From contig RKRR01000107.1 of the NCBI GenBank assembly GCA_007571305.1, forward strand, positions 5,638 to 69,637: 64,000 nucleotides of DNA, read 5' to 3'. This document shows, piece by piece, positions 3,218-30,645 of the stretch. Position 1 is the stretch's first letter, and each line of letters starts with the position of its first letter. A program made the translations under genes and the position numbers. Below the pieces are notes generated by a model. That model did not search any database and was not told where the DNA came from. It worked only from the letters and a program-made list of their open reading frames with translations. The stretch comes from Candidatus Poribacteria bacterium (GTDB lineage: Bacteria; Poribacteria; WGA-4E; WGA-3G).

Positions 3218-3338
3218 TAGTAAAACCCGTAAATAAGTTCATATTTGTAGCATAGGAGACCGTTGGTCTCCTGTGCCATCAGGTAACTTCATAGTTCACA
3301 CGACGCTACAAGTGTCCAAGTAATTACGGACTCTACTA
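3218..3338. mobile_element. MITE family A, copy 1
   Basis: 18-bp imperfect terminal inverted repeats (TAGTAAAACCCGTAAATA / TAATTACGGACTCTACTA), flanked by CA...CA; homologous to 30005-30124. Confidence 0.75.
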
Positions 3339-3391
3339 CAATATGATGGGAGTTTGATCGTTCCATCCAGAGAATATAGTAAGACTAAGAT

Positions 3392-4846
3392 CTATCTCAA
3401 TTGAATCAAGACTGCCCAATGATCCTCGGTTGGAGCAGATAATGTTATGCTATCTCCGAAGGGAATTTCCGATTCCTGTGTCCATTCACTTTTAGCGATA
3501 TTTAACCACCTTATTGCTACCATTTTGGGGTTTATCTCTTTACCTGTACTCAGCTTGGTATCAACCGAGCCGCCATTCGGGAAGTAGACAGCGTATTCGC
3601 GTCCTGGATTTGCGAAGGCATACGCTCCATTTTCTGCCCTGTTGGAAAGCAAATCATTGTGAGGCTCACAGAGAAAAATGTCCATGCTATCCGTAAGAAT
3701 TCGCATACTCTTGATGTGTGCTTGTGCCCTTTCGTTCAAGCCAATCCCGCTGTCGGGACGATGAAACCGAGCTGAGGCGAATCCGCCGAAAATATTTCGC
3801 CAAAACCGCTCCAACCCATCCTGTGTACTGCCGAATCGCCCGCCATCAGCACCGTAAATTTTAATGTTATTGATGGGACGGATCGGTGAAAGTTCTGCTC
3901 GAATTTCCTGGGCGTTATCCCAATGCCGCTGCCGCTTCTGATGATTATTCTGTGATATATCACAAAACGAGTAGGTCTCAGGATGGTCAAACGTTGCTTT
4001 ATGTTTCTCATGGGACAAATTCCATGGATCCCACATTTCTGTCGTTTCAACGCTTCGTCCGGCTGTTGCTGCCTGTTTCTGGATATACATTGCCCAATAT
4101 TCACCCCAGGCGGGCGTAACAGAAGTCTCGTTGTCCATGCAGTAGAGCACATGCCCGTACTGGAGCGTCTCGGAAAGAAGTTTATCTACAAATTTTTGTT
4201 GGTATTTCAAAACGATTTGCTGATTGCGCTCTTTCGGGACAGACCAGAAAAAATTGTTCTCCGTTGCAGTCGGGTGGCTTTTGACAACGGTGGGTAACCC
4301 TGTTTCTTCCGCAGTATAGTTGCTATTATTTTTCGGATTGAAAGGATTCGCATCCCAAGGCTCGCGGTAATAGTTGAAGGTCGCCCACACCTCAACTTGA
4401 ACGATAATATCCATCCCGTGGGTCCATACGATGAAGTTCCGAAAACGTCTCCAAAATTCATCATTCCATTGATTTAAGTCATATTGATCGCCAACCTTTT
4501 TGAAAGGCGGCACATCGCCTTCATCAACCCAACTCATCGTACTTCGTACATAATTGCCACCGACGGACTTCAGCAGTTCGAGATGCGCTTTGAGGTGCGA
4601 AATCTGAAATAGGTTATCTTCGACTGAACCTCCGATGAGCAGAATCGGCTCACCTTTATACTGCCAGTAACGTGGATTCTCTGTATAAATTTGGATTCGT
4701 TCTTTTTTCATTTTTGTATCTGCTTGGGATTTAGTTTCCGGTGCTGCTGCGTAAAAGAAAACAAATATGGACAGAACCAACACAAACTTGTGTGGTTTCC
4801 ACGGGTTTTGCATACAGTCGTCTTGGAAATGAGCCATAGGTATCAA
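3392..4846 (-). CDS. Secreted hypothetical protein, possibly a glycoside-hydrolase-like barrel with a C-terminal beta domain (DUF6298/DUF4038-like)
   Basis: N-terminal hydrophobic signal-like segment; NPRYWQYKGEPILLIGGS, NVLY-like VLYCMDNET and YAFANPGREYAVYFPNGG motifs recalled from this family. Start uncertain. Confidence 0.5.
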   Translation of the reverse strand: MIPMAHFQDDCMQNPWKPHKFVLVLSIFVFFYAAAPETKSQADTKMKKERIQIYTENPRYWQYKGEPILLIGGSVEDNLFQISHLKAHLELLKSVGGNYVRSTMSWVDEGDVPPFKKVGDQYDLNQWNDEFWRRFRNFIVWTHGMDIIVQVEVWATFNYYREPWDANPFNPKNNSNYTAEETGLPTVVKSHPTATENNFFWSVPKERNQQIVLKYQQKFVDKLLSETLQYGHVLYCMDNETSVTPAWGEYWAMYIQKQAATAGRSVETTEMWDPWNLSHEKHKATFDHPETYSFCDISQNNHQKRQRHWDNAQEIRAELSPIRPINNIKIYGADGGRFGSTQDGLERFWRNIFGGFASARFHRPDSGIGLNERAQAHIKSMRILTDSMDIFLCEPHNDLLSNRAENGAYAFANPGREYAVYFPNGGSVDTKLSTGKEINPKMVAIRWLNIAKSEWTQESEIPFGDSITLSAPTEDHWAVLIQLR

Positions 4847-4954
4847 TTTAGAGGAAGGGTGTTATATTGATGGGTTAATATAACGATTGTTTGTCTGAAC
4901 CGTGGATGACCATAGAGGCGAGAACGTTGTGTTCCCGCCTCTTTGCGTAGTTCA

Positions 4955-5755
4955 TTATTTTTTTAGAGCTGCCCATGTAGCGGTGAGTTTGTCGGTGGGA
5001 GAAACGTCGAAAGCCGCTTCCAATCCATCATCCATAATACTCTGAATCTCATCCTGACTTAGAACCACATTAAAAATAGCCACATCGTCAATGATGCCTC
5101 TGTATTTACCTGCATAACCGGAGCCGATGAGCAAATTAAGTCCGCTGGGGCTGGAATCCCCGCAGGGGTGCGCCCCACACTTTAACCATTTATCCTCAGA
5201 TGCAACCTCACCGTCTTTGTACATCTTATATTCGCGCTTTTTGACATTACGTGTCTCGGCCACGTGAATCCATTCATCATTCACGAAAGTACCAGGTACC
5301 GGTCTCCTGACCTCCACATACGGCTGGCAATTGCCACCACAATCGCCCCAATAAAAACTCAACCGACCGTCCGGTTCCTGTGTCAAGCAACCTTCGCCGC
5401 CATAAGATTTGCAAACGATGTTTTGACGACCCGAAGCTACGCTTTCAGGTCTAACCCAAAAAACAATTGTCACATCTCCGTGGAACTGAAGTGATTCATC
5501 ATTCCCCATATCCACATAAGAGGTGCCATCAAACTCAAGAGCCTTACCAAATTTACCATCCACCCACTTCGGTTTATTCGTGAGTGTCCCATCATTTCCA
5601 TTTCCTGATGAATCTTTTGCGGTATTTCCCTTACCTTCATCAAATTTCCATACGCCTACAATGGTGTCAGGGTCTAACACGGCATAACTTGAAGCGGCTA
5701 ACATCCCAACGATAAGTAGGATGACCCCGCCGATCCACAACAATCTGATCTTCAT
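4955..5755 (-). CDS. Secreted LamG-like jelly-roll protein with conserved C-terminal tail
   Basis: Signal peptide; VWKFDEGKGNTAKDSSGNGNDG, WVDGKFGKALEFDG, GIIDDVAIFN; tail VSPTDKLTATWAALKK. Confidence 0.85.
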   Translation of the reverse strand: MKIRLLWIGGVILLIVGMLAASSYAVLDPDTIVGVWKFDEGKGNTAKDSSGNGNDGTLTNKPKWVDGKFGKALEFDGTSYVDMGNDESLQFHGDVTIVFWVRPESVASGRQNIVCKSYGGEGCLTQEPDGRLSFYWGDCGGNCQPYVEVRRPVPGTFVNDEWIHVAETRNVKKREYKMYKDGEVASEDKWLKCGAHPCGDSSPSGLNLLIGSGYAGKYRGIIDDVAIFNVVLSQDEIQSIMDDGLEAAFDVSPTDKLTATWAALKK

Positions 5756-5788
5756 TTCGTTATTCCTCCTTAGTCCAGAGTTGCAGAA

Positions 5789-5817
5789 ATGATAAGGGGT
5801 TTCGCAAAAATTGTCAA
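5789..5817 (-). promoter_or_regulatory. sigma70-type promoter of the LamG gene
   Basis: Minus strand TTGACA (5812-5817), 17 nt, TATCAT (5789-5794); AAGGAGG RBS downstream. Confidence 0.7.
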
Positions 5818-5862
5818 GAAGAAAGAAGGCGGTCCTCCCCCCAACCTAAAGGATAATATTAA

Positions 5863-5984
5863 TAGGACTTACGCATGCTGCTCTTTTGTAGCATAACCTG
5901 TTAGGGTGTGCCGCGAGAACACTTGTCTTTTTTGAGGTTCTGCCTCTCACAAAGCGTCAGATGGTCAAAATTGCGTAAATCCTG
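5863..5984. mobile_element. MITE family B, copy 1
   Basis: 13-bp TIRs TAGGACTTACGCA / TGCGTAAATCCTG, 5-bp direct repeat ATTAA on both sides; reverse complement of 22793-22914 and 49748-49868. Confidence 0.8.
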
Positions 5985-5985
5985 A

Positions 5986-7254
5986 TTAATTCTCGGTCCG
6001 GAGTGCGTCAATAGGTGAAAGACGCGCCGCCCGCATCGCAGGGTAGACACCAAATCCCACACCCATGACAATCGAAAAAATAACAGAAGTCAATATCCAT
6101 GGAAGAGAAAGGACGACGGGCCACGCGTCCACAACAGGCACAATCCGCACCGCAAGCCATGCCATCCCATGTGCTGCGCCCCAACCGCCCGCGATGCCGA
6201 GCACCCCGCCGCATAAGCAGAGGCAGATCGCTTCTGTCAAGAACTGATAGAAGACATCAATCCGTTTCGCACCTACTGATTTCCGTAAGCCTATCTCGCG
6301 TGTTTTCTCACCGACAGAAACGAGACAGATATTCATAATGCCGATGCCGCTGACGAACAGCGAGAAACCCGCAATGCTGCCCAAAGTAATCTTTATCACC
6401 CTTTGGATGTGCTCCAGCCGCCCGAATGTCAGTTTCGGGATATAGTACTCAATAAAGTCGTCCTGCCCGCGGTGTCTTTTACGTAGGATATCCTTAACAG
6501 AAGCGATGATACTGTTAATATTGGCACCCTTTTGGAAAAAGACAATCATGTAATCAACGTAGCGAATGCCTGAAAGTCGTTGTTGATCTGTTGTCAATGG
6601 AACACAGACGGCATCATCCAAGGAATACTCCCAAGTGAGGCTACGACCCTTTGGTTTCATCACACCCACGACACGCATTCGTACTGGCTTTTGTCGCCAA
6701 TAACGATAATATCGGACCTTTATTTCCTCCCCGAGTGGGACTGCCTCTCCAAACAACTCAATGGCAACTTCTGCCCCCAAGACGCAGACCTGTGCTGCGG
6801 TCTCTATATCGTTTTCGGTGAGAAATCTACCGGTTTGTAGTTCCCAATTCATGCCGCGGGCATAGTTCGCAGTAACTGCTTCTATGAGTGCTCTAGCTTG
6901 GGTTCCATGTCGAGTGGTAACAAAGTTTTCAAAAGATTCGTGATTGGGTAAGACATATAAAACCTCGGGGCATTCCGCCTCAATAGCATAAGCGTCTTCA
7001 AGAGTATATCGTTCGGTAGTTCGCCGGAGCCGCCCGCGTTTGAGAATAGATGTGCGAGTGTAGAGTGTAAACTGATTTGCCCCACCAAGTTTTTCGATAT
7101 CTTCAGCGATGATTTTTTTTCCACCGTCGCCAATAGCAATCATGCACAGCACCCCCGCAACCCCGATAAAGATGCCGAGAATGGACAATCCCGCACGGAG
7201 TCTATTTTGCACAAGCGGCTTTACACCTGTCGTGATAGCCTCAAGAATATTCAT
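5986..7254 (-). CDS. MacB/FtsX-family ABC transporter permease
   Basis: NRLRAGLSILGIFIGVAGV, large periplasmic domain, SLFVSGIGIMNICLVSV, REIGLRKSVGA, GVYPAMRAARLSPIDALRTE. Confidence 0.9.
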   Translation of the reverse strand: MNILEAITTGVKPLVQNRLRAGLSILGIFIGVAGVLCMIAIGDGGKKIIAEDIEKLGGANQFTLYTRTSILKRGRLRRTTERYTLEDAYAIEAECPEVLYVLPNHESFENFVTTRHGTQARALIEAVTANYARGMNWELQTGRFLTENDIETAAQVCVLGAEVAIELFGEAVPLGEEIKVRYYRYWRQKPVRMRVVGVMKPKGRSLTWEYSLDDAVCVPLTTDQQRLSGIRYVDYMIVFFQKGANINSIIASVKDILRKRHRGQDDFIEYYIPKLTFGRLEHIQRVIKITLGSIAGFSLFVSGIGIMNICLVSVGEKTREIGLRKSVGAKRIDVFYQFLTEAICLCLCGGVLGIAGGWGAAHGMAWLAVRIVPVVDAWPVVLSLPWILTSVIFSIVMGVGFGVYPAMRAARLSPIDALRTEN

Positions 7255-8960
7255 CAGCTGACTTGTGGTCCTATAACCTTCAGAAACTCTTTATCATCCT
7301 TTACATCCGAAAATTCAGGGGTCTCAAGGAAAGTCGGGTAGTATGTATCCCAATTATCCGGTTGCGCCACATAGTAGTCCCGAGCGACCTTTAAATGATG
7401 TAGAGTCTTTTCTCGATCCTTCTCAGAAGCCCAGATGCTTGCAGCAAGTTGAAGGTGGGCATAATCGTTGTTATTTTCCAAATCAATGGCGACTTTCAGA
7501 AACCTTTTCGCCTCATCATACTTCCTCAACCACACCAGACAACAACCGACATCGTGAGCAAGCCACATAAGATGACCGAGATCTACAGGTTGCCCTGTCT
7601 CCCGTTTTTTTAATTCTCCTTCCATATACGCCCTCACTTCTGTAAAGATTTGATCGAAACGCTCCCAATCCTCCTGTCCACCATAGATGAGAAGTAGATT
7701 TTCTTTCGCAATTAACCAGAATTGAGAATAGTGATCCGAACCGGGTTCATTGTTAGCACGTTCCAACTTTTCTATTTCAAGGAGTGCTTCATCGAATCTG
7801 TCGTTGCATCGTAAGACATCTACTCCTGTTTGCAGGAACTCGCAGCGACTGTAGCAACTCACGTCAGGATTGTCTAAGCGTTCAGAGGCTTCATGATAAA
7901 GTTGAATCCAGTCATCAATACGACCTTCCGCCGCCCAACATCCATGCACATGCAAATTGGAAGCAGCCTCTAACACGTATTTATCTGACAAGTGCTGGCA
8001 CGTCCAACGGTAAAACTGAGAGTGTTCCTCAATCGCTTCTCGATGTCTTCCCAGAAAAGCGAGGCTATAAATCAATCCATCGTGCGCCCAGAAACGCTCG
8101 GTATTATCTGAAGTCTCATCCATATACTTACGGAGTAGAGGGATTCGCTTTTCCATTCCGAATTTGTCCATATACAGGTATATCTCATCCACAGCGAGAT
8201 GCATTAATTCGGGTGTGGTTTTACCCTTAAGTGCATCTTCAATCTCATTGCAGGCTTTTGTAAGAATATCCGATCTTGATGCGGGATCAGATTTCACATC
8301 TTCCATGAATGCATTGAACTTCGTGCGAATTTCTTCTAATTGTGTCATGATGTTCTCCTTCACGTTATCTGGTAATTCTAAGGAACCAAAGAATTCTGGA
8401 TTTAAGAGTTCTTGATCTGCTTGCAGACGCTTTCGAGCTCGCTGAAGTCGACTCGTAATTGTATTCACCGACACTCCCATGACTCTGGCGATCTCTCTCG
8501 TTGACATTTCGTCGAGATAGAAGAGTGTTACAACGGAGCGTTCATTCGCCGGTAGTTTTTCCAAAAGTCTTCTCACAAGTTCATGGTAATGCTCGATTCT
8601 CTCTGTCATCCGCTGTTCCGATATATGGTGGACATAAGAGGATTTCTCAATTTCTTTAGTAGGTGTGTCCTCCAAGGATTGCGTCACAGACCTTTGGCTT
8701 CGCATCCAATCAATACATAGCCGATTTGCGATGACATGGAGCCATCCAGCAAATTGATTGGGATTCTTGAGTGTCGGAAGTTTATTGTATGCCCTCAGGA
8801 AGGTGTCTTGCATGATCTCTTCCGCATGGTGAAAATCTTGGATCTTCCGCCATGCCAGGGCATGAATGCTTTTCTGGTACTTTTCGACTAAGATACCAAA
8901 CGCAGTGTCGTCACCCGATAAAAACTTGCCAATCAATCGAGCATCGTCTTCTCTTTCCAC
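7254..8960 (-). CDS. ECF sigma factor fused to a ~364-aa C-terminal helical-repeat (TPR-like) domain
   Basis: Sigma2 (AEEIMQDTFLRAY...FAGWLHVIANRLCIDW) and sigma4 (EIARVMGVSVNTITSRLQRARKRL) in residues 1-185; C-terminal helical repeats (YDEAKRFLKVAIDLENNNDYAHLQLA); GTG start with AGGAGG RBS; stop overlaps the permease ATG (TGATG). Confidence 0.85.
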   Translation of the reverse strand: MEREDDARLIGKFLSGDDTAFGILVEKYQKSIHALAWRKIQDFHHAEEIMQDTFLRAYNKLPTLKNPNQFAGWLHVIANRLCIDWMRSQRSVTQSLEDTPTKEIEKSSYVHHISEQRMTERIEHYHELVRRLLEKLPANERSVVTLFYLDEMSTREIARVMGVSVNTITSRLQRARKRLQADQELLNPEFFGSLELPDNVKENIMTQLEEIRTKFNAFMEDVKSDPASRSDILTKACNEIEDALKGKTTPELMHLAVDEIYLYMDKFGMEKRIPLLRKYMDETSDNTERFWAHDGLIYSLAFLGRHREAIEEHSQFYRWTCQHLSDKYVLEAASNLHVHGCWAAEGRIDDWIQLYHEASERLDNPDVSCYSRCEFLQTGVDVLRCNDRFDEALLEIEKLERANNEPGSDHYSQFWLIAKENLLLIYGGQEDWERFDQIFTEVRAYMEGELKKRETGQPVDLGHLMWLAHDVGCCLVWLRKYDEAKRFLKVAIDLENNNDYAHLQLAASIWASEKDREKTLHHLKVARDYYVAQPDNWDTYYPTFLETPEFSDVKDDKEFLKVIGPQVS

Positions 8961-9342
8961 GAAACTTCCTCCTAATGAACAGGTTGGATCGTGCTTGTTT
9001 TTGCCAAATGCGAAACTTTGTCAAATGAAGCAGCCCAGGGCGATTCGTACTCTCTGTTATTAAAGACGAAAGTTTAATGAAAAAACGTGCATCGTGATGA
9101 AAAAATGGGAAAACCTGAATTGTTTGGAAATTATTTTGTGGGGACAATTCTGGACGCACGATAAATCACCGATTGCGCAAATCTTGGACTGCTAACAGAT
9201 AGAGTTACCGCTGAAAGGCATTTTCGGGGGAATTGAAGTATGTGTAGGGAAGACTTATCTCTACAAGTCAGAACGCTTGCGCCCCTTACATCAATCAGAA
9301 ACGGTCACAAATGCTTCTTTGGGAACTGAGACAGTAGAAATA

Positions 9343-11316
9343 CTAAAAGGCGCGGATGACCTTAGCAACTAAACGCTGTTTGAATTCCGAGGCATTAGGA
9401 TCTCCCAGGATAATGAAAAAGTCAGTGCCGGCATATCCGGATCGGCGCAATGCGAAGTAGATATTAATGCCCTCTGCTTGCCAGATTAATCGGCTACCGA
9501 GACTTAATGCGGGACTGAAATCGTACGTGAGGGTTAAAATCTGTTGGTACCGCCTCTCAAAGTGCCACTGAATTTGGGAAGTCAATCCGACAGTGAAACC
9601 GTGGGTGCGGAGATTCAGATTCCCGCTGACGCGATGAATCCGCTCCCCTGCTTGCTCGCCACCTGTGTATCCAACATTGACATTATTAAACCGGTCTGAG
9701 GCGCGGAGACCCAAATTAACAGAGAAAAGGCTATCGGTGAATTCCTCAAATCTGCCACCTCTCCAGTCAGCCCCAAGTGCGATGTCACTATGGGTTAAAA
9801 GGTATGTGGCGATTGTAAACGTGCGACGAAAAAGTTCGCCTTCAGCGGTGTTAGAAGCATGCCCATAAAAGAAAATATTGGCACGCCGAAAAATTCCATC
9901 CCGCCATTCGTTATCAATTCGGACACGCATGGAAGCACCATGATATCCGGTGAAGGGGTGGTAGCCGAGTCTGTTCACAAAATCGGGATCGAAGAACAAT
10001 CCCGACACCGCTGCTTGAAGTAGCGAACCTTCGTAAAGGAACGTGGCAGCCCCTGCCCTACCCTCCGATTCACCCTCCCAAGTTTGACCGAAATGTGAGG
10101 ACACCGAAAACTTACCGTGGCGTATATTCCCTGAAAGATAACCGACATTGTTGGCTTTGGTATCACGGTGATGATGAGACAAAAACGCCGCGCTGATATT
10201 GGATGTCGCCGTGAGCGATTGTGAAGCTCGGAAGATAACATTCTGGTTGTTTCCATGATACGTGCTTAAGGTACCGACTGAGGTATTCTTGCCAATTTTT
10301 CCAAAGGCTTTCAATCCTGCATCCATATCCTCTACCCGCCGCGAGTGAAAAAAGTTCCGAAATTGATAGAGATTACCACCTTCTGAAAAGAACGGACGGC
10401 GATCCGGTACGTAGCGTTCACCGTAGGAGAAATCGATGCCTTCCACGGCTTGTTCAACATTATCAAAATCGGGATTCGCTGTTCCAATGAGTCGCAACTG
10501 TGGTGTAACTTCATAGCGGATATCCGCGCCTGCGCGGGCAGTGTATTCTCTCTCGTCGGCCTCCGCTTCCCGAATACCACCAATCAGATAGGGTAAAAAT
10601 TTGAGTTCACGTTTCCGAGGCGGTGGTAGCACATCAATCCAATGTCCATCGTTCTCTCGAAATTCATTCACCCCTAAATTACACCACCACGAACGTTCCC
10701 CAGTGCGCTGCTGTTCTCTGTCAATATTAATCCCCATCCGAACTGGTTTGGTTGTATCAGGATAATCCAACATCTGCCACGGTATCTCCATCTCTACAAT
10801 CCAGCCGTCTTCCACAATCTGTGCTGCAGCCTTCCATAGTCCGATCCACTCACTTTTTTCTGCACGTCCAGTAGCGAGATGTGCGTATTTCGTCCCGATT
10901 GGATTTACGATAAAGAAATTTCTGTCCGAAAACTGGTGTGTATGAAACGGATCAAGACTAAACGAAACCCAGTCCTCTCCGCGAATTCGGGTCTGATCTT
11001 TCGTTTGGCGCGCAACAATTTTATCGGGCATATCATCGTAAAGATGAAGTCCAACGTAAATAGCTTTGTCCGTATAAACAAGGCGGCCCATAGACTGATT
11101 TTTTGCTGGTTTTTCGGTGCGCTGATCAGTGAAACCGCTGGCTTGGGGTGCGTCTTGCCAGCAAACATCGTTGAGGACACCGTCAATGACAGGCGTTTGA
11201 TCTGTTTTGACGGCGCGGAGTTCTTTCTGCACAGTCTGTCCGTTTTCGGCTACCGACATTTGTAAGTCTGTGATTAAGGTGAACAATAGTGTGATAAGCA
11301 ATACTACCCTAGACAT
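9343..11316 (-). CDS. CBM9-like plus DUF5916 outer-membrane/secreted protein
   Basis: Signal peptide; PVIDGVLNDVCWQDAP, YVGLHLYD, GWIVEMEIPW, TANPDFDNVE, DRRPFFSEG motifs; beta-strand-rich C-terminus ending in F. Confidence 0.7.
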   Translation of the reverse strand: MSRVVLLITLLFTLITDLQMSVAENGQTVQKELRAVKTDQTPVIDGVLNDVCWQDAPQASGFTDQRTEKPAKNQSMGRLVYTDKAIYVGLHLYDDMPDKIVARQTKDQTRIRGEDWVSFSLDPFHTHQFSDRNFFIVNPIGTKYAHLATGRAEKSEWIGLWKAAAQIVEDGWIVEMEIPWQMLDYPDTTKPVRMGINIDREQQRTGERSWWCNLGVNEFRENDGHWIDVLPPPRKRELKFLPYLIGGIREAEADEREYTARAGADIRYEVTPQLRLIGTANPDFDNVEQAVEGIDFSYGERYVPDRRPFFSEGGNLYQFRNFFHSRRVEDMDAGLKAFGKIGKNTSVGTLSTYHGNNQNVIFRASQSLTATSNISAAFLSHHHRDTKANNVGYLSGNIRHGKFSVSSHFGQTWEGESEGRAGAATFLYEGSLLQAAVSGLFFDPDFVNRLGYHPFTGYHGASMRVRIDNEWRDGIFRRANIFFYGHASNTAEGELFRRTFTIATYLLTHSDIALGADWRGGRFEEFTDSLFSVNLGLRASDRFNNVNVGYTGGEQAGERIHRVSGNLNLRTHGFTVGLTSQIQWHFERRYQQILTLTYDFSPALSLGSRLIWQAEGINIYFALRRSGYAGTDFFIILGDPNASEFKQRLVAKVIRAF

Positions 11317-11376
11317 GATTCTCCCTCATTGTCCCGCGAGCTTCTACAGGTTCGCTCTTATAGATTCACTTGTATA

Positions 11377-11535
11377 ACCCAAATTGCTATGGACACAATT
11401 TTAGAAATTCATCTGCTCTTTTTTATTGAAAAACGTTCGGGATCCGCAGTATTTCGTAGCGTAGGAAACCTTTGGTCGCCTACGTCCGAAGCTGCACAAC
11501 CGAACAGGTGATGCGACAAAGGCGGCAACTTGGGT
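11377..11535. mobile_element. MITE family C (IS982-like ends), copy 1
   Basis: Ends ACCCAAATTG / CAACTTGGGT, flanked by TTGTATA / TTGTATG; full-length homology with 53926-54082. Confidence 0.75.
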
Positions 11536-11624
11536 TTGTATGGTAGAGTCCCTTAAGACGGAAAAAGGATAGCAAAAAATTCAAGAGAGTTATTGTTTAT
11601 CAGTTAAAGAGGTACTCTGTTTAA

Positions 11625-12845
11625 TCAAGGGATCTTTTGATGGAATTCCGCGATGCTTTTTTCAACACTTCGGAGTAGCATCTCATCGCTGAGGTGGAAC
11701 GCCTCGCGTATTGTGATCGGTAGTTTCTGTTTCGCCTCTATCGAATCGAGCAACTGCTGATTTTGCACGACAACGACAGAGTCAATACTTCCTCGAAGTT
11801 CCTGCAGACCACGTTTTGCTTGCTCCGCGCGACGTTGACCTTCAAAGTTGAATGGACACGTCACAACGCCGACTGCGAAAGCACCCTGTTCTTGAGCGAG
11901 AGATGCAATCAGAGGTGCGGCACCAGTCCCTGTTCCACCACCCATACCAGCGATAACAAAGACAATATCCGCATTCGCAACGATAGTGTAGAGTGTTTCT
12001 CTGTCCTCCTCAGCGGCTTCTCTACCTACCTCTGGATTCGCGCCCGAAAACCCTGGAGTGGTGTTTGAGCCGATCTGTACCCGTGTTGCTTCACGGTGCT
12101 TGTCTAGTGCTTGCATGTTTATATCCACGGCATAAAATTCAACACCTGTCAAACCGGCTGCAATCATGTGATTGACGGCGTTACCGCCCGCTCCACCGAC
12201 ACCAATAACCTTGATTTTGGTTTGGATGTTTTTGGATTCTTCTCGTTTGGATGACATAGGTCTCCCTTTTTTAGGCTCGACACCGAACTTCTTACGCAGG
12301 AGTTCACGTGTCTGTCTTAATTTCGTCTTGATTGTGCCTATCGCCAATCCGAGTTCAGCGTGGATCTCATTGATATTCCACAATTCCAAATAGTATAGGA
12401 CCGCAACGCGGCGCATTTTATCTGGGAGATGATGTATTGCTTCTCTCACCTCTTCGTAGAGTTCTGTTTCACGAAAGCGTGCGACAGCACCTTGATCAAT
12501 ATAATCCGTCAGATCTGCATAACTGGCAGAAATTTCATTCCCCAAACGCCCAACAGAAGCATAGTACCTCTTGCAAGCGTTATAAGCAATGCGATGTAGC
12601 CATCCACCGAAACTCTCAACGCTCTGTAGTCCGCCGATATTTTCCCAGACGGCTCTCCAAACGTCCATAAGGATTTCTTCAGCATCGCGGGGTTGTCTCG
12701 AATTTGCGATAATCACTTTCCAAATACGTGGACTATAACGCGACATCAGTTCCGCAAACGCCAGTTCATCACCGGCTTGTACAAGTTCGATGAGTTCTTC
12801 ATCTGTTAGAATGGTGTCCGTTGATAGATCGTATCGCATAAACAT
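11625..12845 (-). CDS. ECF sigma factor fused to an FtsZ N-terminal GTP-binding domain
   Basis: Residues 1-190: sigma2 (DAEEILMDVWRAVW...FGGWLHRIAYN) and sigma4 (EIHAELGLAIGTIKTKLRQTRELL). Residues 197-406: KIKVIGVGGAGGNAV, GANPEVG, AGMGGGTGTGAAP, PFNFEGQRR. Ends before the T7 loop (NVDFAD). Confidence 0.92.
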   Translation of the reverse strand: MFMRYDLSTDTILTDEELIELVQAGDELAFAELMSRYSPRIWKVIIANSRQPRDAEEILMDVWRAVWENIGGLQSVESFGGWLHRIAYNACKRYYASVGRLGNEISASYADLTDYIDQGAVARFRETELYEEVREAIHHLPDKMRRVAVLYYLELWNINEIHAELGLAIGTIKTKLRQTRELLRKKFGVEPKKGRPMSSKREESKNIQTKIKVIGVGGAGGNAVNHMIAAGLTGVEFYAVDINMQALDKHREATRVQIGSNTTPGFSGANPEVGREAAEEDRETLYTIVANADIVFVIAGMGGGTGTGAAPLIASLAQEQGAFAVGVVTCPFNFEGQRRAEQAKRGLQELRGSIDSVVVVQNQQLLDSIEAKQKLPITIREAFHLSDEMLLRSVEKSIAEFHQKIP

Positions 12846-12928
12846 TTCTCAATTAGATTTTAACCTTAAAGAGTAGACTTTTTCGGAGAGCGGTTTAAAA
12901 AAATCAAATTAACGACTTGTGCTAATTA

Positions 12929-13086
12929 ACCCAAGTTGCCACTTTGTAGCATAGGAAACCGTTGATCTCCTGTGCATCTTCATGCCGAAAATCACACGGA
13001 ATACGTCAAACTTTTGGAAAAAATGGAGGATCCTCACTGAAAACGGGTGTTCGTGTATCTGAAATCCTATAGGTAGCAACTTGGGT
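12929..13086. mobile_element. MITE family C, copy 2
   Basis: Perfect ends ACCCAAGTTG / CAACTTGGGT with 6-bp direct repeat TAATTA on both sides; lies between the two sigma-fusion genes. Confidence 0.8.
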
Positions 13087-13216
13087 TAATTAGTTTTGAG
13101 ACAGGATTTCAACTCGGTCTGAGACGTGTTAACCTCCTCGGAATACTTCCGAAACCCTCCTGGAGATGAATCAAGCGTTTTTGATGTATCAGGGTCAGGA
13201 ACATCGTTTCGCTTTG

Positions 13217-14938
13217 CTAAAGTTTCTTCGGCATGACGAAATAGACCTGCCCTTCTTCACCCATCGGTTTAATAAAAATAGGGTCCAATTCACCCGAGAA
13301 CTCCAGAGACAGAGCCTCCGTTTCAACGCGCTCGATTGCGTCTGTCAGCAACCGTGGATCAAAACCGATACGGATACTTCCAGTGCTGGATTCCACCTCT
13401 AACGTCTCCTGCTTTATATCCGGTTCAGTCGTCTCCGGAGAAATCCGAATTTGTTGCGCATCTATCTCCATACAAATAGTAGGATTTTCCGGATTTGTGA
13501 GCGGCGAGACCCTGCGTATTGCGTCCAAAAAACGCTCTCTCGGCACAACCGTCCGCCCTTTAAAAGATTCTGGAAAGAGTTTCTCATACTTTGGATATTC
13601 ACCGTCTACCAATCGCGTCGTTAATGTAGCGTGATCATCGGCAAAAAGGATTTCATCCTCAACGAGCGAAATCTTTACTTCTGGAGAACTGGCAAAATTT
13701 CGCTCAATTTCTCTGACAGCCTTGAGCGGGATGATGAATCCATTGCTCTCACCAGCTAGCCTGAAGGGTTCGCAATGCGCGATAGCAATTTGTTTGCCGT
13801 CGCATCCAACGACCTCAGTTCTGTCCTCAAAAAGTTTAAAATAAAGCCCGTTTAGAAATCGACGACGATTTTCCTCTCTGGACGCAGCAAATTCAGTCTT
13901 GTAGAGAACAGACCGCAGGGATTCTCCGTTAATAGTGAATGCCTCTTCGCCAACAGAGAGGAGTTCAGGGAACTCTTTATTGGGAAGTCCAATAATTTTG
14001 TAAACGTCTTCCTGACCTGTGATTTCAACCCTATCGCTCGTCGCCGCGAAGTCTATCGCTTTCTCAGCGGGCCACGTTTTAATGATATCCTCCAATTTTT
14101 GGAAAGAAACCACGATGGCTCCTTCCTCTTTGACTGTCCCTTCAACCTTCATTCTGATGCCGATTTCCGTGTCCGTCGCCATACACTCAATTGTGCTCCC
14201 TTCCGCATGGATGAGAACATTTGCGGTAATAGGTGAGGTATCCTGTCCACTTACGATACTCTGTAGCACTTGTAAGGAGTGCCAAAACTCATCTCTCTCT
14301 AAAGTTAATTTCATTCCAAAACCTCCGTTCAAATGATTTTGAGACCGATGTTCCCCTTCAATGGTGAGGTCTAACGCTTCTTGAATCATGAATTCATACT
14401 TCTTTAGTTGTTGCCGCGCACGGCGAAGACGACTTTTAATTGTATTTTCTGATACGCCTAAAAGACGACTTATCTCTGCGTACGTCATGCCTTCAAGGTA
14501 GTGAAACGTGATGACTGTTCGATTGCCTTCCTTCAACTTCGCAAGCAACTTTTCTACCAAGTCGCGTCGCGCGTCAGCAAAAGTTTTCGCGTATTCCTCC
14601 GCGATATATCGGGAATACGCCTCTGTTGCTACTTCGGTGCTGTCAGTGCCTTCCAACGGTTCGATGTGTCGATGGTTCTTTCGGAGCCAAGCGATACAGA
14701 GGCGATCCGTAATGACATAAAGCCATCTTGGAAACCGCGTCGGATCTTCCAAGGTTTCCAATTTCTGATACACCTGTAGGAAGGTTTCCTGCGTAATATC
14801 TTCGGCAATATGAAAATCCCGAATTTTCCGCCACGCGCGTGCGTGAACCTGTTTCTGGTATTTTCTCACCAAGTGCTCAAAGGCAATTGCGTCACCCGCA
14901 AGGATGCGTTGAATCAACACAATATCATCGTTTCTCAC
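13217..14938 (-). CDS. ECF sigma factor fused to a full-length DNA polymerase III beta clamp (DnaN paralog)
   Basis: Residues 1-190: sigma2 (IAEDITQETFLQVYQKL...WLYVITDRLC) and sigma4 (EISRLLGVSENTIKSRLRRARQQL). Residues 209-573 (365 aa): MKLTLER..., MATDTE, EFPEL, FAAS...RRFLNGLYF, DGKQIA, IIPLKAVRE, RLVDGEYPKYEKLFP, IGFDPRLL, FVMPKKL. Confidence 0.92.
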   Translation of the reverse strand: MRNDDIVLIQRILAGDAIAFEHLVRKYQKQVHARAWRKIRDFHIAEDITQETFLQVYQKLETLEDPTRFPRWLYVITDRLCIAWLRKNHRHIEPLEGTDSTEVATEAYSRYIAEEYAKTFADARRDLVEKLLAKLKEGNRTVITFHYLEGMTYAEISRLLGVSENTIKSRLRRARQQLKKYEFMIQEALDLTIEGEHRSQNHLNGGFGMKLTLERDEFWHSLQVLQSIVSGQDTSPITANVLIHAEGSTIECMATDTEIGIRMKVEGTVKEEGAIVVSFQKLEDIIKTWPAEKAIDFAATSDRVEITGQEDVYKIIGLPNKEFPELLSVGEEAFTINGESLRSVLYKTEFAASREENRRRFLNGLYFKLFEDRTEVVGCDGKQIAIAHCEPFRLAGESNGFIIPLKAVREIERNFASSPEVKISLVEDEILFADDHATLTTRLVDGEYPKYEKLFPESFKGRTVVPRERFLDAIRRVSPLTNPENPTICMEIDAQQIRISPETTEPDIKQETLEVESSTGSIRIGFDPRLLTDAIERVETEALSLEFSGELDPIFIKPMGEEGQVYFVMPKKL

Positions 14939-15348
14939 CGGACATCTCCCGAAAGGTCATTTTATCAAGGGAACTTATACAATTTCCATATCTCGTGAAA
15001 TAGGTGTGCCTATAAATCGCGAAGAGGCACCCTATCAATTGACTTCACCATAGTGACGCGAACTGAAAAAAAAAAGGGTGCATAATTCTGCATACTTGCT
15101 GTGTCGTGCCACTTTAGTTTCTTGTCTCAAAGGGGATTCATCGCTGAACAAGATGGATTTAGTGCCGACTGAAGTTTGGCTGAGGATGCCGTCCCAGTTC
15201 CATATCTGATGGGCTTCGCGAATGCCACACACGCATTCGCCGAGATGCCCTCCTCTATGAAACGAGAAGCCTACTATCGCTTGTGTGGGATAGCATGGAC
15301 TACCCAGCGACCCCACACAAGTACAGTGCGCGTTAGATAGATCATTCA

Positions 15349-16188
15349 TTAATCGGTTTCCTCGGATACAGGTTTGTCAGCCTCGTCTGCATTCAAGTAT
15401 CTGAGTGGACTTTCAATGCTGTATTCCCCTGATTCCTCAAGAAACTGCTGAATCAGATAGACATGCCCAGCACCGATAATTAATAGGATCCGGTCATTCG
15501 GAGATTCGGTGATACGCGTGAGGTTCACAAAAATCTGGAGATTCCAGGTATACCACAAATGCCCAACCCAATTGGCCCCTGGGTACTGATCGCCGAGTCC
15601 AACACGCGCAATTCGCAAGTACTGCTGATGATCAGCGAGTCTACCTTCAGGCTGATTGAGTCGTCTGTACATATCGGTTATCGGTTCGTATTTCTCAGGT
15701 TCAACCCAGATTGTGCCATCTGCATCCTGCGTAATTTTCCCTTCAGCCATAGGGGGTTGCCCCATGAGGTGCTCCTGATTATGTGCCTTTGCGAACTTGT
15801 CAGGGTCTACCAAATCCCAGTCAAAGTTCTCTGGAAAGAAACCATCGGGTTCCTGACGGTAATTTCGGAAATAATCAACACAGTAGAGTTTAGGGAGTCC
15901 CATCTGTTTTGCCAATCGAAATCCGATTTGGTCGCCTTCCCCACGTTTGAGTTGGTATGTGCCTTCCAGATAGCCATGATAGTTTGCGTTAATCTTAGCA
16001 TCAAACCTTTCATCTGCCTCAAGAGCTACCTTAGTGGGACGAAACGCTTTCAGCTGCGTCACCAGTTGTTCAATCTCGCGTTGGCGTTTGGGCGCGAGGA
16101 CATCATCCATTTTTGTATTGAATACATTGATTCCTGGATTTGCCAGATGGTCACTGCCGAGAATCATAAGTATCGGTTTTTGTGGCAT
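15349..16188 (-). CDS. DUF5694-like protein (stand-alone copy, putative TraB/Tiki-type hydrolase)
   Basis: MILGSDHLANPG, FRPTKVALE, QIGFRLAKQMG, WYTWNLQIFVNL, RILLIIGAGHV. ATG at 16188 follows AGGAG; the track start at 16278 overlaps the upstream gene. Confidence 0.7.
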   Translation of the reverse strand: MPQKPILMILGSDHLANPGINVFNTKMDDVLAPKRQREIEQLVTQLKAFRPTKVALEADERFDAKINANYHGYLEGTYQLKRGEGDQIGFRLAKQMGLPKLYCVDYFRNYRQEPDGFFPENFDWDLVDPDKFAKAHNQEHLMGQPPMAEGKITQDADGTIWVEPEKYEPITDMYRRLNQPEGRLADHQQYLRIARVGLGDQYPGANWVGHLWYTWNLQIFVNLTRITESPNDRILLIIGAGHVYLIQQFLEESGEYSIESPLRYLNADEADKPVSEETD

Positions 16189-16222
16189 TTGCGTAGTATC
16201 TCCTGTAGATAGATATGTCTGA

Positions 16223-17647
16223 TCATTGCTTAGGCTGTTCGGTATCCTCGGATGAAAGTGTCTCTGCCTCATCCGCATTCAAGTACTTCAGTGGACTCTC
16301 AACGATGTAGTCTCCCGATTCCTCAAGAAACTGCTGAATCAGATAGACATGCCCAGCGCCAATAATCAGTAGAATGCGATCATCGGTGGACTCAGTGATA
16401 CGCGTGAGGTTCACAAAATTCTTGAGATTATGTGCATACCACCAATGTGAAACCCAATTGGCACCTGGATATTGGTCTTTGAGCCCAATGCGTGCGGTTC
16501 GCAGATACGATTGATGTTGTACCCTACCCCATTCAGGCTGATTGAGCCGGATATACATGTCAATTAGGGGTTCATATTCCTCAGGTTCAACCCAGACTGT
16601 GCCATCTACGTCCGCCCGAACTCTCACTCCGCTTGAGGAGATGCTCCATAAGAGATGCTCCTGATTATGAGTCTCCGCAAACGTGGCGTAGTCCAGTAGA
16701 CTCTGATCAATTTGATCTAAAATCGGTCTCTGTTCCGGCCAATCAGCAACACAGTAAAGTTTCGGATGTCCCAGCTGTTTCGCTAACCGAAAGCCGATTT
16801 GGTTGTGCGAAATCCGTTTGAGTTCGTAATCGCCCTCCAAGTAGTCTTGATAATTGGCGTTAATCTCAGCATCAGATTTTTTGTCTGCATAGACGGCTAT
16901 CTTAGTGGGACGAAACGCTTTCAGCTGCGTCACCAGTTGTTCCATTTCGCGTTGGCGTTTGGGCGCGAGGACATCATCCATTTTTGTATTGAATACATTG
17001 ATTCCTGGATTTGTGAAGAGGTCACCACCCAAAATCATGACTGTCGCTTTTTGTCGTGTGTCATCTCTTTTCCACTGCCCCTTCAGCTTGTCGCCGAAAT
17101 CGATGTCCACCGCACCGAAATTGCTTAGATTTCCGAGCAATTCCTCAATGCGTTCTGGCTCGATCTCTCCGTAGATGTTGGCAAAGGTGGCTTCTCCAGA
17201 TCCTTTAGAGATGATGATAGCGAAAATCCCGTAGACCTTCTTTTCGTCAAACAGTAGATTGATCTCCACCGTTTCACTCTTTTCCTTAATCCTGACGAGG
17301 ACTTCCCACTGATCCTTTTTCAGTTTCTCCTTGAAATAACTAACTAATTTCCTTTCATCAATCCTTGCCTTATCGTAGGTGCGGACATAGATGCCATCTA
17401 ACATTTGGATCAGTTCGGCGACTTCGGGTTGATTGCTCACCGACTTGGTCACCAGATTGATGAGTTTCGCGGTCAGGTTAACTTCGACTTTTGCTTCAAT
17501 GGTCTCCGGAAAATCAAAGAGGATAAGCCCTTTTCTCTCTGTTTTATCCGAACTTTCTTGTTGTGCTGGTACTGTATTAATCAGTATAAACCATACAGGT
17601 AAAACAACTGATATCAATAATAGGATGGACTGTTTTTGCATTTTCAT
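16223..17647 (-). CDS. Secreted DUF4252-DUF5694 fusion protein
   Basis: Signal peptide; DUF4252-like block (KVEVNLTAKLI...LDGIYVRTY...WEVLVRIKE...FANIYGEI); C-terminal half is a near-duplicate of 15349-16188. Confidence 0.7.
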   Translation of the reverse strand: MKMQKQSILLLISVVLPVWFILINTVPAQQESSDKTERKGLILFDFPETIEAKVEVNLTAKLINLVTKSVSNQPEVAELIQMLDGIYVRTYDKARIDERKLVSYFKEKLKKDQWEVLVRIKEKSETVEINLLFDEKKVYGIFAIIISKGSGEATFANIYGEIEPERIEELLGNLSNFGAVDIDFGDKLKGQWKRDDTRQKATVMILGGDLFTNPGINVFNTKMDDVLAPKRQREMEQLVTQLKAFRPTKIAVYADKKSDAEINANYQDYLEGDYELKRISHNQIGFRLAKQLGHPKLYCVADWPEQRPILDQIDQSLLDYATFAETHNQEHLLWSISSSGVRVRADVDGTVWVEPEEYEPLIDMYIRLNQPEWGRVQHQSYLRTARIGLKDQYPGANWVSHWWYAHNLKNFVNLTRITESTDDRILLIIGAGHVYLIQQFLEESGDYIVESPLKYLNADEAETLSSEDTEQPKQ

Positions 17648-17659
17648 GTGTTCTACTCC

Positions 17660-18346
17660 TTAATTTGAATTGTCGTTTGTTTCTGTTTCTGACTTTGGGT
17701 CGTCCTCCAGTTCTCCCGAACTCACCGCTACTTTCAACCACTGGGGTGCATGCCCCTTTACCCAACCGCGAACATTTTCAAGAATCTCCACCTCAGAATT
17801 AGATTCCAGAAACTGTCCAAATAGAACACCGAGTTTCTGAAAGTCCATCTCTCCATAGATGTTCACGAAACTCGTTTCTTTGTCATTAGTGAACATGAGG
17901 AAAATGCCATGCACTATGCCCTGTTCCTCGGCATATAGCAGACTGAGGTCGAATTTGTCCTCGATTTTGACGAGACGTTCCCACTTTTTCGCTTCAAAGA
18001 TCTCTTGATAGTGGTCAATTACGTTCTTGAGATCTTCTGTTTCTTTATTATATGTGCGGATGGCAGCACCGTTCAGCATTTCGATATGCTCTGTCAAAAC
18101 GACCGACTTGTCTCCAGCAAGTTTCAGATGACTACCAGAAGTCATAAAGAGTTTGAAGAAGTCCCTATCCAAGTTAAATGCCATTTTAGGAAGCGGGGCA
18201 TCCGGCACATCCATCTCTATTTTGCCAAACATTACCTCTACTTCTGCTACGTTGTTCGTCTGGGCGAACCCATTACTGAAGGCGCAGCAGGCTGCGAAAA
18301 AAACGACACCCAGTAAAAGAAAAGTGAGGGGGAATCTTTCCATCAA
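17660..18346 (-). CDS. Secreted DUF4252-family protein
   Basis: Signal peptide; MAFNLDRDFFKL, LNGAAIRTY, WERLVKIE, FVNIYGEMD. Confidence 0.65.
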   Translation of the reverse strand: MMERFPLTFLLLGVVFFAACCAFSNGFAQTNNVAEVEVMFGKIEMDVPDAPLPKMAFNLDRDFFKLFMTSGSHLKLAGDKSVVLTEHIEMLNGAAIRTYNKETEDLKNVIDHYQEIFEAKKWERLVKIEDKFDLSLLYAEEQGIVHGIFLMFTNDKETSFVNIYGEMDFQKLGVLFGQFLESNSEVEILENVRGWVKGHAPQWLKVAVSSGELEDDPKSETETNDNSN

Positions 18347-19020
18347 TTTTCTCCTTTTTGGTGGGAGTGTTGACTCTTTTCAGTGTCAGGAACATTTTCG
18401 GGTAACCGGCTAAGGCTCTCCAAACTTCGCCGAATTGCTAATGAAATATTTTCTTTTTGTTTCAACACGCTGCGGGACGCGTTTTCAATCTGAACAAAGG
18501 GACGACCTGAAACTTCATCAATTCGTACATCAGGAAGCTTTTCATTGACAACGGCACCTGTTCTCTCTACCGCGTAGTTTAACTGACTGAGCGCATAGTT
18601 GAGGTCACGGGAGGCTTGCGTTATCCTCACATACTGCTGATACTGGTAGGTACCAAACAAAGCAACACCAATGAGAACTACCAAGGCACCTGCGCGAGTA
18701 AGTCGTGAAGTGATGTAATCCGAGAATGTGAACAACTGGAATATCCGTTGCAGCCATCTCGGTCCCCTGTTGGGATGCGTGCGAACATAAGCCGAAACAG
18801 CGTTGAAAATTTCTGGTGGTGGTTCCGGCATCGGAAGATCGTGTAATGCTTCATCTATTGCTTGTGCGAAGCGAACTTCATTTTGACAAGCCGAACAGAA
18901 CGCAATATGTGCCTTTACTGTCGCATGAATATCTGCATCCAATTCATCGGCGAGATACGCCTCTAAATTGTCCTGAATCTCCATACAAGATGAATCTCGG
19001 TGAAGCGGAAGATCCTTCAT
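18343..19020 (-). CDS. Zinc-binding (ZAS, zf-HC2) transmembrane anti-sigma factor
   Basis: C-x...LEAYLADEL...HIAFCSAC (HxxxCxxC), one TM helix (GALVVLIGVALFGTY); overlaps the sigma stop (ATGA). Confidence 0.85.
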   Translation of the reverse strand: MKDLPLHRDSSCMEIQDNLEAYLADELDADIHATVKAHIAFCSACQNEVRFAQAIDEALHDLPMPEPPPEIFNAVSAYVRTHPNRGPRWLQRIFQLFTFSDYITSRLTRAGALVVLIGVALFGTYQYQQYVRITQASRDLNYALSQLNYAVERTGAVVNEKLPDVRIDEVSGRPFVQIENASRSVLKQKENISLAIRRSLESLSRLPENVPDTEKSQHSHQKGEN

Positions 19021-19550: not shown

Positions 19551-19663
19551 ATTGCATCTCCGCGCATCTTGAGGTTGTTGTTACTACAAACGAGTTTCAA
19601 AATAGTTGCACTATTTTTATTTAAGATGCTCGGAGGTAGTTTAGGCAGGCCTAACTGAACGTG

Positions 19664-30286: not shown

Positions 30287-30296
30287 AGAAAGACTT

Positions 30297-30645
30297 GAGT
30301 TGAGTAGATGGTTGCGTCCCGATCGGAATCTTACCATCGGGATGAGGAAAGTCCGGACTCCACAGGGCAGGATGCTGGGTAACACCCAGGAGCGGCGACG
30401 CTATGGAAAGTGCAACAGAGAGTAGACTACAACGCCTCAAAGCGTTGTACAGGTGAAACGGTGCGGTAAAAGCGCACCAGTCCATAAGGTGACTTATGGA
30501 GCTCGGTAAACCCCATCTGGAGCAAGGTAAATGAGGGAATATACAGGTGTGCCCATCTCGTCCCCAGGTAACCGCTTGAGGTGGATGGTAACATCCATCC
30601 CAGATGAATGACCATCATATACAGAATCCGGCTTATTCTCAACTC
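30297..30645 (+). ncRNA. rnpB: RNase P RNA (bacterial type A)
   Basis: GAGGAAAGTCCGGACTCC, GGAAAGTGCAACAGA, GGTGAAACGGTGCGGTAAAAGCGCACC, GGTAAACCCC, ACAGAATCCGGCTTA; P1 pairing GAGTTGAG / CTCAACTC. Confidence 0.97.

Follow-up and report, generated by a model that had tools for sequence, protein, structure and literature searches.

Candidate internal translation starts at the domain junctions of ECF sigma factor fusions in Candidatus Poribacteria

In a 64,000-nucleotide stretch of contig RKRR01000107.1 (hereafter the window) from Candidatus Poribacteria, an uncultivated group of sponge symbionts, we found three minus-strand genes in which an extracytoplasmic function (ECF) sigma factor is fused in frame to a C-terminal partner, namely a TPR-like domain, an FtsZ GTPase domain or a DnaN sliding clamp (Table 1). 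At the join of all three fusions a Shine-Dalgarno (SD) sequence precedes an in-frame ATG, with exactly the strings and positions given in an earlier reading of the bare sequence (the initial annotation). The count of three is also correct, as tblastn with the sigma domains finds four such domains in the window, the fourth (19017-19550) being a stand-alone sigma factor. On the sequence evidence presented below we lean towards the reading that the junction is a live initiation site, by which each gene would make both the fusion (sigma-X) and the free partner (X) from one mRNA.

Table 1. Sigma-fusion genes, their junction motifs and the stand-alone comparator in the window (ORF, open reading frame; aa, amino acids; nt, nucleotides)
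Feature	Position	Strand	Description	Basis
ECF sigma-TPR-like gene	7254-8960	(-)	568 aa; GTG start with AGGAGG SD	ORF
SD AAGGAG (Lys201-Glu202)	8360-8355	(-)	sigma-TPR-like; spacer aacatc, 6 nt; -8.8 kcal/mol	
Internal ATG, M205	8348-8346	(-)	sigma-TPR-like; inside conserved peptide motif NL(K)EN(I/V)M	
ECF sigma-FtsZ(N) gene	11625-12845	(-)	406 aa	ORF, Pfam
SD AAGGGAG (codons AAA GGG AGA)	12268-12262	(-)	sigma-FtsZ; spacer acct, 4 nt; -8.4 kcal/mol	
Internal ATG, M197	12257-12255	(-)	sigma-FtsZ; 13 residues before IKVIGVGG	
ECF sigma-DnaN gene	13217-14938	(-)	573 aa; GTG start at 14938	ORF, Pfam
SD GGAGGT (Gly206-Gly207, GGA GGT)	14326-14321	(-)	sigma-DnaN; spacer tttgga, 6 nt; -10.2 kcal/mol	
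Internal ATG, M209	14314-14312	(-)	sigma-DnaN; Met1 of 365-aa beta clamp	
Stand-alone sigma/anti-sigma junction	19017-19033	(-)	GGAGGA-ataacag-ATGA; comparator within the window	

Pfam recognized Sigma70_r2 and Sigma70_r4_2 (or Sigma70_ECF) in all three fusions. Their sigma part consists of sigma2 and sigma4 only, with neither sigma1 nor sigma3, which places it among the ECF factors, and Foldseek matched it to SigE/RseA, SigW and AlgU. Behind it each of the three proteins carries a long in-frame C-terminal domain that is kept across orthologues, as in the ECF factors with C-terminal extensions. The sigma domain of sigma-FtsZ is only ~26-28% identical to those of the other two fusions. In sigma-DnaN, sigma2/sigma4 occupy residues ~8-180 and a linker of variable sequence follows at ~181-208; the remainder (209-573) is a complete beta-clamp paralogue, in which Pfam identified all three domains (DNA_pol3_beta, _2 and _3) at 209-571. 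This clamp part (its residues 1-365) aligns to residues 1-366 of E. coli beta (E = 9e-29) and, end to end, to the best-matching solved clamp (E = 7e-41). It is of the DnaN-family fold, while its context and copy number are unlike those of a replicative dnaN: the neighbors are DUF5694 genes, another sigma fusion and ABC permeases, and one genome holds two fused DnaN paralogues (loci L013 and L039, both on OY764073.1).

The partner in sigma-FtsZ was identified as a Tubulin/FtsZ GTPase domain (Pfam, residues 210-369, 5.7e-42), which aligns to residues 14-200 of S. aureus FtsZ and has the tubulin signature GGGTGTG intact (motif GMGGGTGTGAAP in the translation). The chain stops ~10 residues past the H7 equivalent, with the T7 loop and C-terminal subdomain that FtsZ polymer GTPase activity requires both missing; the partner is thus an FtsZ-derived domain and not an FtsZ. 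In the last 360 residues of the 568-aa sigma-TPR-like protein there was no Pfam match, TPR included. An AlphaFold2 model (38 homologues) predicts an all-helical repeat solenoid at ~198-531, with a pLDDT of 74 overall and >85 over ~270-500, and Foldseek matched it to TPR solenoids (LGN and APC subunits) with a TM-score of ~0.5. The name TPR-like is consequently a label taken from the predicted fold only.

A scan of one genome per species gave matches only in metagenome-assembled genomes of Candidatus Poribacteria, many of which are complete chromosomes of 5-6 Mb. Each fusion has >120 homologue clusters of equal length and architecture, and the three genes are syntenic in many genomes. The sigma-DnaN clusters (>120) are full-length and 67-86% identical. 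In 42 Poribacteria loci, down to 55% identity, the sigma-DnaN frame is open across the junction, with >200 open codons upstream of the junction Met in 42/42 and with all linker indels in frame. The sigma-FtsZ homologues (>120 clusters) are all ~405 aa long with an identical truncation, and 19 of their loci are syntenic. Furthermore, the sigma domains are highly conserved, with many invariant columns. Together, homologues of the same length, open frames and in-frame indels indicate that the fused protein is under selection. An assembly or annotation artefact was ruled out, as the same fusions occur in >100 independent assemblies, including the complete 5-6 Mb chromosomes. A subfamily of shorter sigma-DnaN proteins of 455-461 aa (loci L026, L028, L029, L031, L032 and L038, matches starting at 10001), to which the query matched only up to ~440-458, appears from its sequence to carry clamp paralogues without most of domain III; it keeps the junction GGA GG(T/C) ... 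ATG.

The initial annotation had placed the three ATGs exactly at the domain junctions. This is literally so in sigma-DnaN, where residue 209 falls on Met1 of E. coli beta and is, as had been proposed, the natural first residue of a 365-aa clamp. It holds well in sigma-FtsZ, where M197 has the same position relative to IKVIGVGG as the native FtsZ N-terminus, and only approximately in the TPR-like gene.

SD strength was scored as the duplex energy between the 15 nt from -18 to -4 and the anti-SD tail ACCUCCUUA. Out of the 302 internal in-frame ATGs in the 41 coding sequences of the window, only six (2%) reach an energy of <= -7.9 kcal/mol, and three of these six are the fusion-junction ATGs. 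The true gene starts in the window are preceded by canonical AGGAGG, GGAGG or AAGGAG sequences 4-10 nt upstream, and the junctions fall within the range of these starts both in energy (-8.4 to -10.2) and in spacing (4-6 nt). The fusion genes accordingly show one mark of a nested gene, namely an in-frame internal start codon with an SD at functional spacing. Around the junctions the mRNA shows somewhat less structure than is average for the gene (z +0.7 to +1.4). While the 5' start is often a GTG with an SD of -4.9 to -10.2, the internal start has a fixed ATG and an SD of -8.6 to -9.2. As the SD at the internal ATG looks equal to or stronger than that of the 5' start, free X could be made in amounts equal to or above those of the fusion. 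No sigma70-type promoter-like site was found within the sigma-coding parts, and the total of matches stayed below shuffle expectation. An internal promoter was rejected on this search, and one shared mRNA is the simplest reading.

Among orthologues, the sigma-DnaN junction (n=42) is nearly always GGA G(G/A)T TTT GGA ATG, and changes of residue keep the purine run, as when HEG is encoded by GAG GGT and NRG by AGG GGT. The sigma-FtsZ junction (n=20, plus 6 variants) is AGA GGG AGA AC(T/C) ATG or a single-base variant of it. Its residues vary (RGR, RGG, RGE, RRG, RRR, RGV, RWR, RER, SER) and the stretch stays purine-rich, with an SD in most sequences. In the TPR-like family (n=12) the junction reads AAG GAG AA(T/C) AT(T/C) ATG, the sole exception to AAG GAG being GAG GAG in orthologue L082, a K-to-E change that preserves the SD; within this motif it is only the Lys codon (AAG) that creates the SD. 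The start codon itself is an ATG in 38/38 aligned sigma-DnaN loci and 20/20 sigma-FtsZ loci, with Met in 119 out of 120 protein clusters in each of the two families. Replacements of the junction Met are rare, and two of the three that were sequenced are GTG (in the TPR-like and wHTH families, the latter a winged helix-turn-helix fusion introduced below), the third being the ATA of the exceptional DnaN cluster. The one Met-to-Val variant in the TPR-like family thus still has a start codon.

When codon alignments were made for each family and the anti-SD energy was averaged per column, the junction ranked at or near the top in all of them. In the sigma-DnaN alignment it is the strongest of 579 columns, with a mean of -8.64 compared to -2.12 (sd 1.95) over the gene. 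In sigma-FtsZ (mean -9.17) it is tied as strongest with two adjacent columns, of which it alone holds a start codon, and the TPR-like junction (-8.8) is outranked by the true 5' start alone. The wHTH family, too, has its best mean energy in the gene at the junction (-8.66). In every family the junction is the only internal column with a start codon in 100% of the sequences. Ten non-sigma ortholog families from the same loci served as controls. Their 4128 columns include 52 conserved start-type columns, and only two of these 52 had a mean energy <= -7.5, both being real N-termini and neither of them internal.

Whether the SD is kept at synonymous positions, as a selected site would be, was answered differently by the different families. 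The codon shares in these loci are 27% for GGA, 33% for AAG, 34% for GAG and 21% for AGR. Against this share of 27%, the SD Gly of sigma-DnaN is GGA in 94% of the sequences. Only two of its 14 conserved Gly columns reach >=90% GGA, both at the junction, and while the SD Gly has a third-base conservation of 0.94, only 10% of the 90 conserved four-fold columns reach >=0.9. In deep sigma-DnaN clades, whose four-fold identity to the window has fallen to 0.33-0.5 (saturation ~0.26), GGA GG(T/A) is still kept. A thinned test, in which codons were resampled synonymously in near-independent lineages, gave Fisher p-values from 0.004 (6 lineages) to 9e-5 (11 lineages) for sigma-DnaN. On synonymous sites alone, the signal is significant for DnaN, borderline for FtsZ and the TPR-like family and short of significance for wHTH (values for the last three below). 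The test is weak outside DnaN because the linker peptides yield SD-like strings under most codon choices, and the case consequently rests more on profile rank, on the control families, on recurrence across families and on substitution behavior. Two other codon signals were discarded as uninformative: the fixation of AGR for Arg at the FtsZ junction, since 6 out of 23 conserved Arg columns are also >=90% AGR, and the preference for GAG at the TPR-like junction, since an SD-less family described next prefers GAG there as well.

Using a hidden Markov model of the sigma domain, we identified 156 sigma ORFs in 76 loci together with the window, nearly all with long C-terminal extensions, which were then clustered. 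The most numerous partner was the wHTH domain (HTH_20; n=54), with the junction AAA GGA GA(A/T) ATT AAC ATG (-8.7), followed by DnaN (n=40; GGA G(G/A)T TTT GGA ATG), a BNR/sortilin ectodomain behind a transmembrane (TM) helix (n=21; no SD) and FtsZ (n=19; AGA GGG AGA AC(T/C) ATG type). Less common were PD40 with an S9 peptidase (n=9; CAA GGA GAA ATT AGT ATG, -8.5), the TPR-like domain (n=5; AAG GAG AA(T/C) AT(T/C) ATG) and WD40 (n=1; a linker of the wHTH type). A profile-free search of 1.8 billion representatives returned >100 clusters (50% identity) that combine this sigma with a partner 400-1280 aa long. The question raised in the initial annotation, i.e. whether other sigma fusions in the genome share the junction, can thus be answered in part, for the loci surveyed: the wHTH and PD40/S9 peptidase fusions do, but the BNR fusions are without an SD. 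The latter constitute a natural negative control, as their peptide NLTENIM(R/Q)EI has a conserved Met and energies of only -3 to +0.6. Three loci (L072, L074 and L076, at ~3300-19600) contain tandem arrays of three to four sigma-TM-BNR/sortilin genes of ~900-1150 aa each, every gene having NLTENIM and none a junction SD.

As to origin, the initial annotation had offered the capture of a downstream gene together with its ribosome-binding site (RBS) as an alternative to dual products, and this origin is supported. The 5' untranslated region (UTR) of free DnaN paralogues, aataGGAGcacttggaATG, is homologous, codon by codon, to the fusion sequence AAC GGA GGT TTT GGA ATG; in the free genes an in-frame TAA lies five codons upstream, and the SD, spacer and ATG are the only initiation region. 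Two such paralogues, which share 53% and 48% identity with the fused domain, lie in tandem on one contig, and a neighbor-joining tree places these free copies as the sister group of the entire fused clade. The pair (373 and 368 aa, locus L165 6001-8867) is located on a 6.07 Mb contig, probably a Poribacteria chromosome, next to a TnpB-like fragment (Cas12f1-like_TNB) and a type I restriction HsdR gene rather than dnaA. The DnaN, wHTH, S9 and WD40 fusions have a homologous sigma domain and linker up to the SD, and their partners differ from the ATG on. Moreover, a chimera of 469 aa (L166 4001-5410, on a low-coverage (3x) contig) joins an FtsZ-type sigma to a DnaN module without clamp domain I. 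It contains a remnant of the FtsZ-type junction, GGAAGAatt GTG, followed by a DnaN-type junction, AGAGGGGAttttgaa ATG, which is the DnaN module's own SD-ATG (AGAGGGGA-ttttgaa-ATG). The homology to a free-gene 5' UTR, the shared sigma and linker and the chimera together point to junctions that began as the RBS of a captured gene, and the sequences indicate later partner swaps at the ATG or close to it. An unfused homologue of the TPR-like partner (60% identical; L008 19921-21096) has no sigma domain upstream; its ORF starts with a hydrophobic TM-like segment or, alternatively, at an ATG preceded by GAGGGAGAA.

For comparison, the window also contains an unfused junction of this layout. The stand-alone sigma factor ends in ...tGGAGGAataacagATGA, with the SD in its last codons and the ATG of the anti-sigma gene overlapping its TGA stop. 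This arrangement of SD, 7-nt spacer and ATG is that of the fusion junctions, with a stop codon and a frame change added. The regulator or partner occupies the same downstream slot in both, but where the operon has a stop (ATGA overlap) and a change of frame, the fusions have no stop, so that a covalent sigma-X would also be made.

We can now state the favored explanation as a whole. An ECF sigma is fused in frame to diverse partners through a linker of 20-30 residues, and the last ~15 nt of that linker would double as an initiation region, with an SD, a spacer of 4-7 nt and an ATG at or near the native N-terminus of the partner. Sigma-X would be translated from the 5' start (often GTG) and free X from the internal ATG, nested and in frame. 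Such a gene may have arisen through loss of a sigma gene's stop codon, by which its reading frame ran on across the RBS of the gene downstream; ribosomes would still initiate at the internal site, and the site would be retained if free X is needed alongside sigma-X. Capture then accounts for the origin and a second product for the maintenance, so that these two readings are not rivals. Since a neutral SD should decay at synonymous sites, and the deep sigma-DnaN clades show no such decay, capture alone leaves the retention unexplained. Selection for a second product best explains, as far as sequence can tell, why the junction was retained, and the fusion genes probably have dual products. The proposal in the initial annotation of two products per gene is thus partly supported, by a conserved SD and ATG, a top-ranking anti-SD site that has no counterpart in the control families and persistence through near-saturation in DnaN.

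Several observations weigh against a live internal start, and most of them speak for the strongest alternative, namely that the SD and ATG are a relic of the fusion, kept by the linker residues, with only the full-length protein made in meaningful amounts. The linker would then need Gly-Gly, Lys-Glu or Arg-Gly-Arg as well as the first hydrophobic residue of the partner, and the documented derivation from a free gene's 5' UTR agrees with this. The peptides GG, GD, KGE, KE and RGR encode SD-like strings with most codons, and with random synonymous codons the mean energies are already around -6 (-6.1 to -6.5 in three families). Outside DnaN, the strict synonymous tests are marginal: the thinned test gave 0.028 for FtsZ, 0.02-0.06 for TPR-like and 0.11-0.18 for wHTH, and when the six codons preceding the ATG were resampled sequence by sequence, p was 0.06-0.25, a weak outcome for which this test was retained only in its thinned form. 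In the FtsZ variants RWR, RER, SER and RWG the SD is weakened to -4.9 to -6.4, and one DnaN lineage has ATA in place of the start codon. Several structural Mets (99-100%) are at least as well conserved as the one at the junction, and Met conservation was dropped as a discriminator for this reason. The relic explanation is strongest for the TPR-like gene, where M205 lies 7 residues inside a predicted helix (198-224 in the AlphaFold2 model) and inside a peptide motif that the SD-less sigma-BNR proteins keep, NLTENIM being homologous to NLKENIM. The caution in the initial annotation that this stretch may be a conserved protein linker was therefore justified for the TPR-like gene, the NL(K/T)ENIM motif with its Met being found also where there is no SD, and it is in this gene that a start function is least certain. 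Also, because DnaN, wHTH and S9 fusions share a homologous sigma and linker, there are two to three independent junction types and not five. Lastly, the anti-SD tail used for scoring was not read from the host 16S rRNA, as the window holds none.

On the other hand, substitutions do occur in the linker (G to E, G to R, K to E, and among R, G, E, W and V) and mostly leave the purine-rich SD in place, and GGA has stayed fixed through near-saturated synonymous divergence while other Gly columns drift. Nor does a peptide constraint account for a junction that ranks first in the gene for anti-SD pairing in sigma lineages unrelated to each other, for control families devoid of internal SD-start sites, or for Met replacements that favor GTG. 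We therefore consider the relic explanation rather unlikely.

A reverse arrangement is very improbable, in which the partner is the main product and the sigma domain a rarely translated upstream extension or optional leader. It is in line with an internal initiation region that looks no weaker than that at the 5' end (ATG versus a frequent GTG), but leaves aside the high conservation of the sigma domains and the linker frame, whose maintenance in every orthologue calls for selection on the fused protein. Least probable of all is an elongation pause, in which the SD-like string would slow ribosomes so that sigma folds before the partner emerges and the ATG would be incidental: the SD does lie at the domain boundary in every family, but the constant distance of 4-7 nt to a start codon present in 100% of sequences, the GTG replacements and the homology to a real 5' UTR are left unexplained, and SD-induced pausing in vivo is disputed.

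If dual products are made, partner X may speculatively be placed in the anti-sigma or regulatory slot, where free X would compete or co-assemble with tethered X; the amount of sigma that is sequestered or tethered could be governed by this interplay. As possible outcomes, the initial annotation had named clamp dimers in which a single subunit bears a sigma, and a titrating decoy. Beta clamps dimerize head to tail, the FtsZ domain engages in contacts within filaments, and for TPR and wHTH domains dimerization or the binding of partners is usual. A more far-reaching version, which we put forward as a long shot, is that a sigma/anti-sigma operon was turned into a general two-in-one gene that ties ECF-dependent transcription to replication or division. 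The sigma would be tethered to a hub (a beta-clamp paralogue, an FtsZ GTPase domain or others), the stronger internal start would supply free hub, and the ratio of internal to 5' initiation would set the stoichiometry; coupling might go through DNA-loaded clamps, as in T4 late transcription, or through the Z-ring or GTP state. In phage T4, the sliding clamp gp45 activates the late sigma gp55. The likeness, a sigma physically coupled to a sliding clamp, is a resemblance only, since in T4 the two are separate proteins joined by a clamp-binding tail, whereas the Poribacteria sigma is covalently fused to a beta-clamp paralogue, i.e. a predicted clamp.

Nested in-frame genes are well known, e.g. 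T7 gene 4A/4B, ClpB, IF2 and CheA. Phage endolysins form multimers of the full-length chain and a free C-terminal binding domain made from an internal start (PMC9430671), Cas8 genes also make Cas11 (PMC11899642), and in-frame internal starts in E. coli have been mapped by retapamulin Ribo-seq (10.1101/520783). Common to these and the Poribacteria genes is an internal start with its own SD at a domain boundary and a short product corresponding to the C-terminal domain. Both products join one complex in the endolysin and Cas cases; in the Poribacteria fusions the second product is a predicted one. They are also unlike the known cases in that the host gene is a transcription-factor fusion and that the feature recurs over several partners of one sigma clade.

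ECF sigma factors that carry an extension at the C-terminus have been described in ECF41 (SnoaL-like), ECF42 (TPR) and ECF238 (CorE) (PMC8999054, PMC7826278, PMC3426412), and these, like the present fusions, combine a minimal sigma2-sigma4 with a long in-frame C-terminal domain that replaces a separate anti-sigma factor. ECF42 carries a TPR-rich extension, to which the Poribacteria TPR-like fusion is compared by predicted fold only. The ECF classification papers searched make no mention of beta clamp, FtsZ GTPase, wHTH, WD40 or S9 peptidase partners, nor of an internal start, and a literature search brought up nothing relevant on sigma fusions of Poribacteria or on the nesting of sigma and anti-sigma genes. 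In the literature searched, fusions of a sigma to a clamp or to FtsZ are undescribed, and such proteins hint at a direct connection of alternative sigma activity with replication or division. If the internal starts are functional, one protein per fusion gene is overlooked in annotation, and regulation in a large and expanding ECF clade would hinge on the proportion of tethered to free partner inherent in each gene. The junction also illustrates a probable route of domain accretion, i.e. loss of a stop codon over a downstream RBS followed by partner swaps at the ATG.

The genomic surroundings of the fusions were examined as well. No tRNA or rRNA genes were found in the window. The stand-alone sigma factor belongs to a classical ECF operon at 15349-19550 (-), consisting of the sigma gene (19017-19550), a zf-HC2 anti-sigma gene (18343-19020, ATGA overlap), a DUF4252 gene (17660-18346), a DUF4252+DUF5694 gene (16223-17647) and a DUF5694 gene (15349-16278). 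The DUF5694 parts of the last two are paralogous, and the coordinates of the two ORFs overlap by 56 nt. Genes for MacB/FtsX-type and ABC2 permeases are interleaved with the sigma fusions, both in the window (5986-7254 and 9343-11316, minus strand) and in homologous loci, as is a DUF5916/CBM9 gene, which is duplicated in many genomes. Base 7254 is common to the stop of the sigma-TPR-like gene and the start of the FtsX-type gene. A sigma70-like match, TGGAAA-18-TAAAAT with an extended TG (14959-14988, minus strand), lies 20 nt upstream of the sigma-DnaN GTG and is a consensus match only. Lastly, a complete bacterial class A RNase P RNA (298 bits) at 30296-30650 on the plus strand is the only Rfam match in the window.

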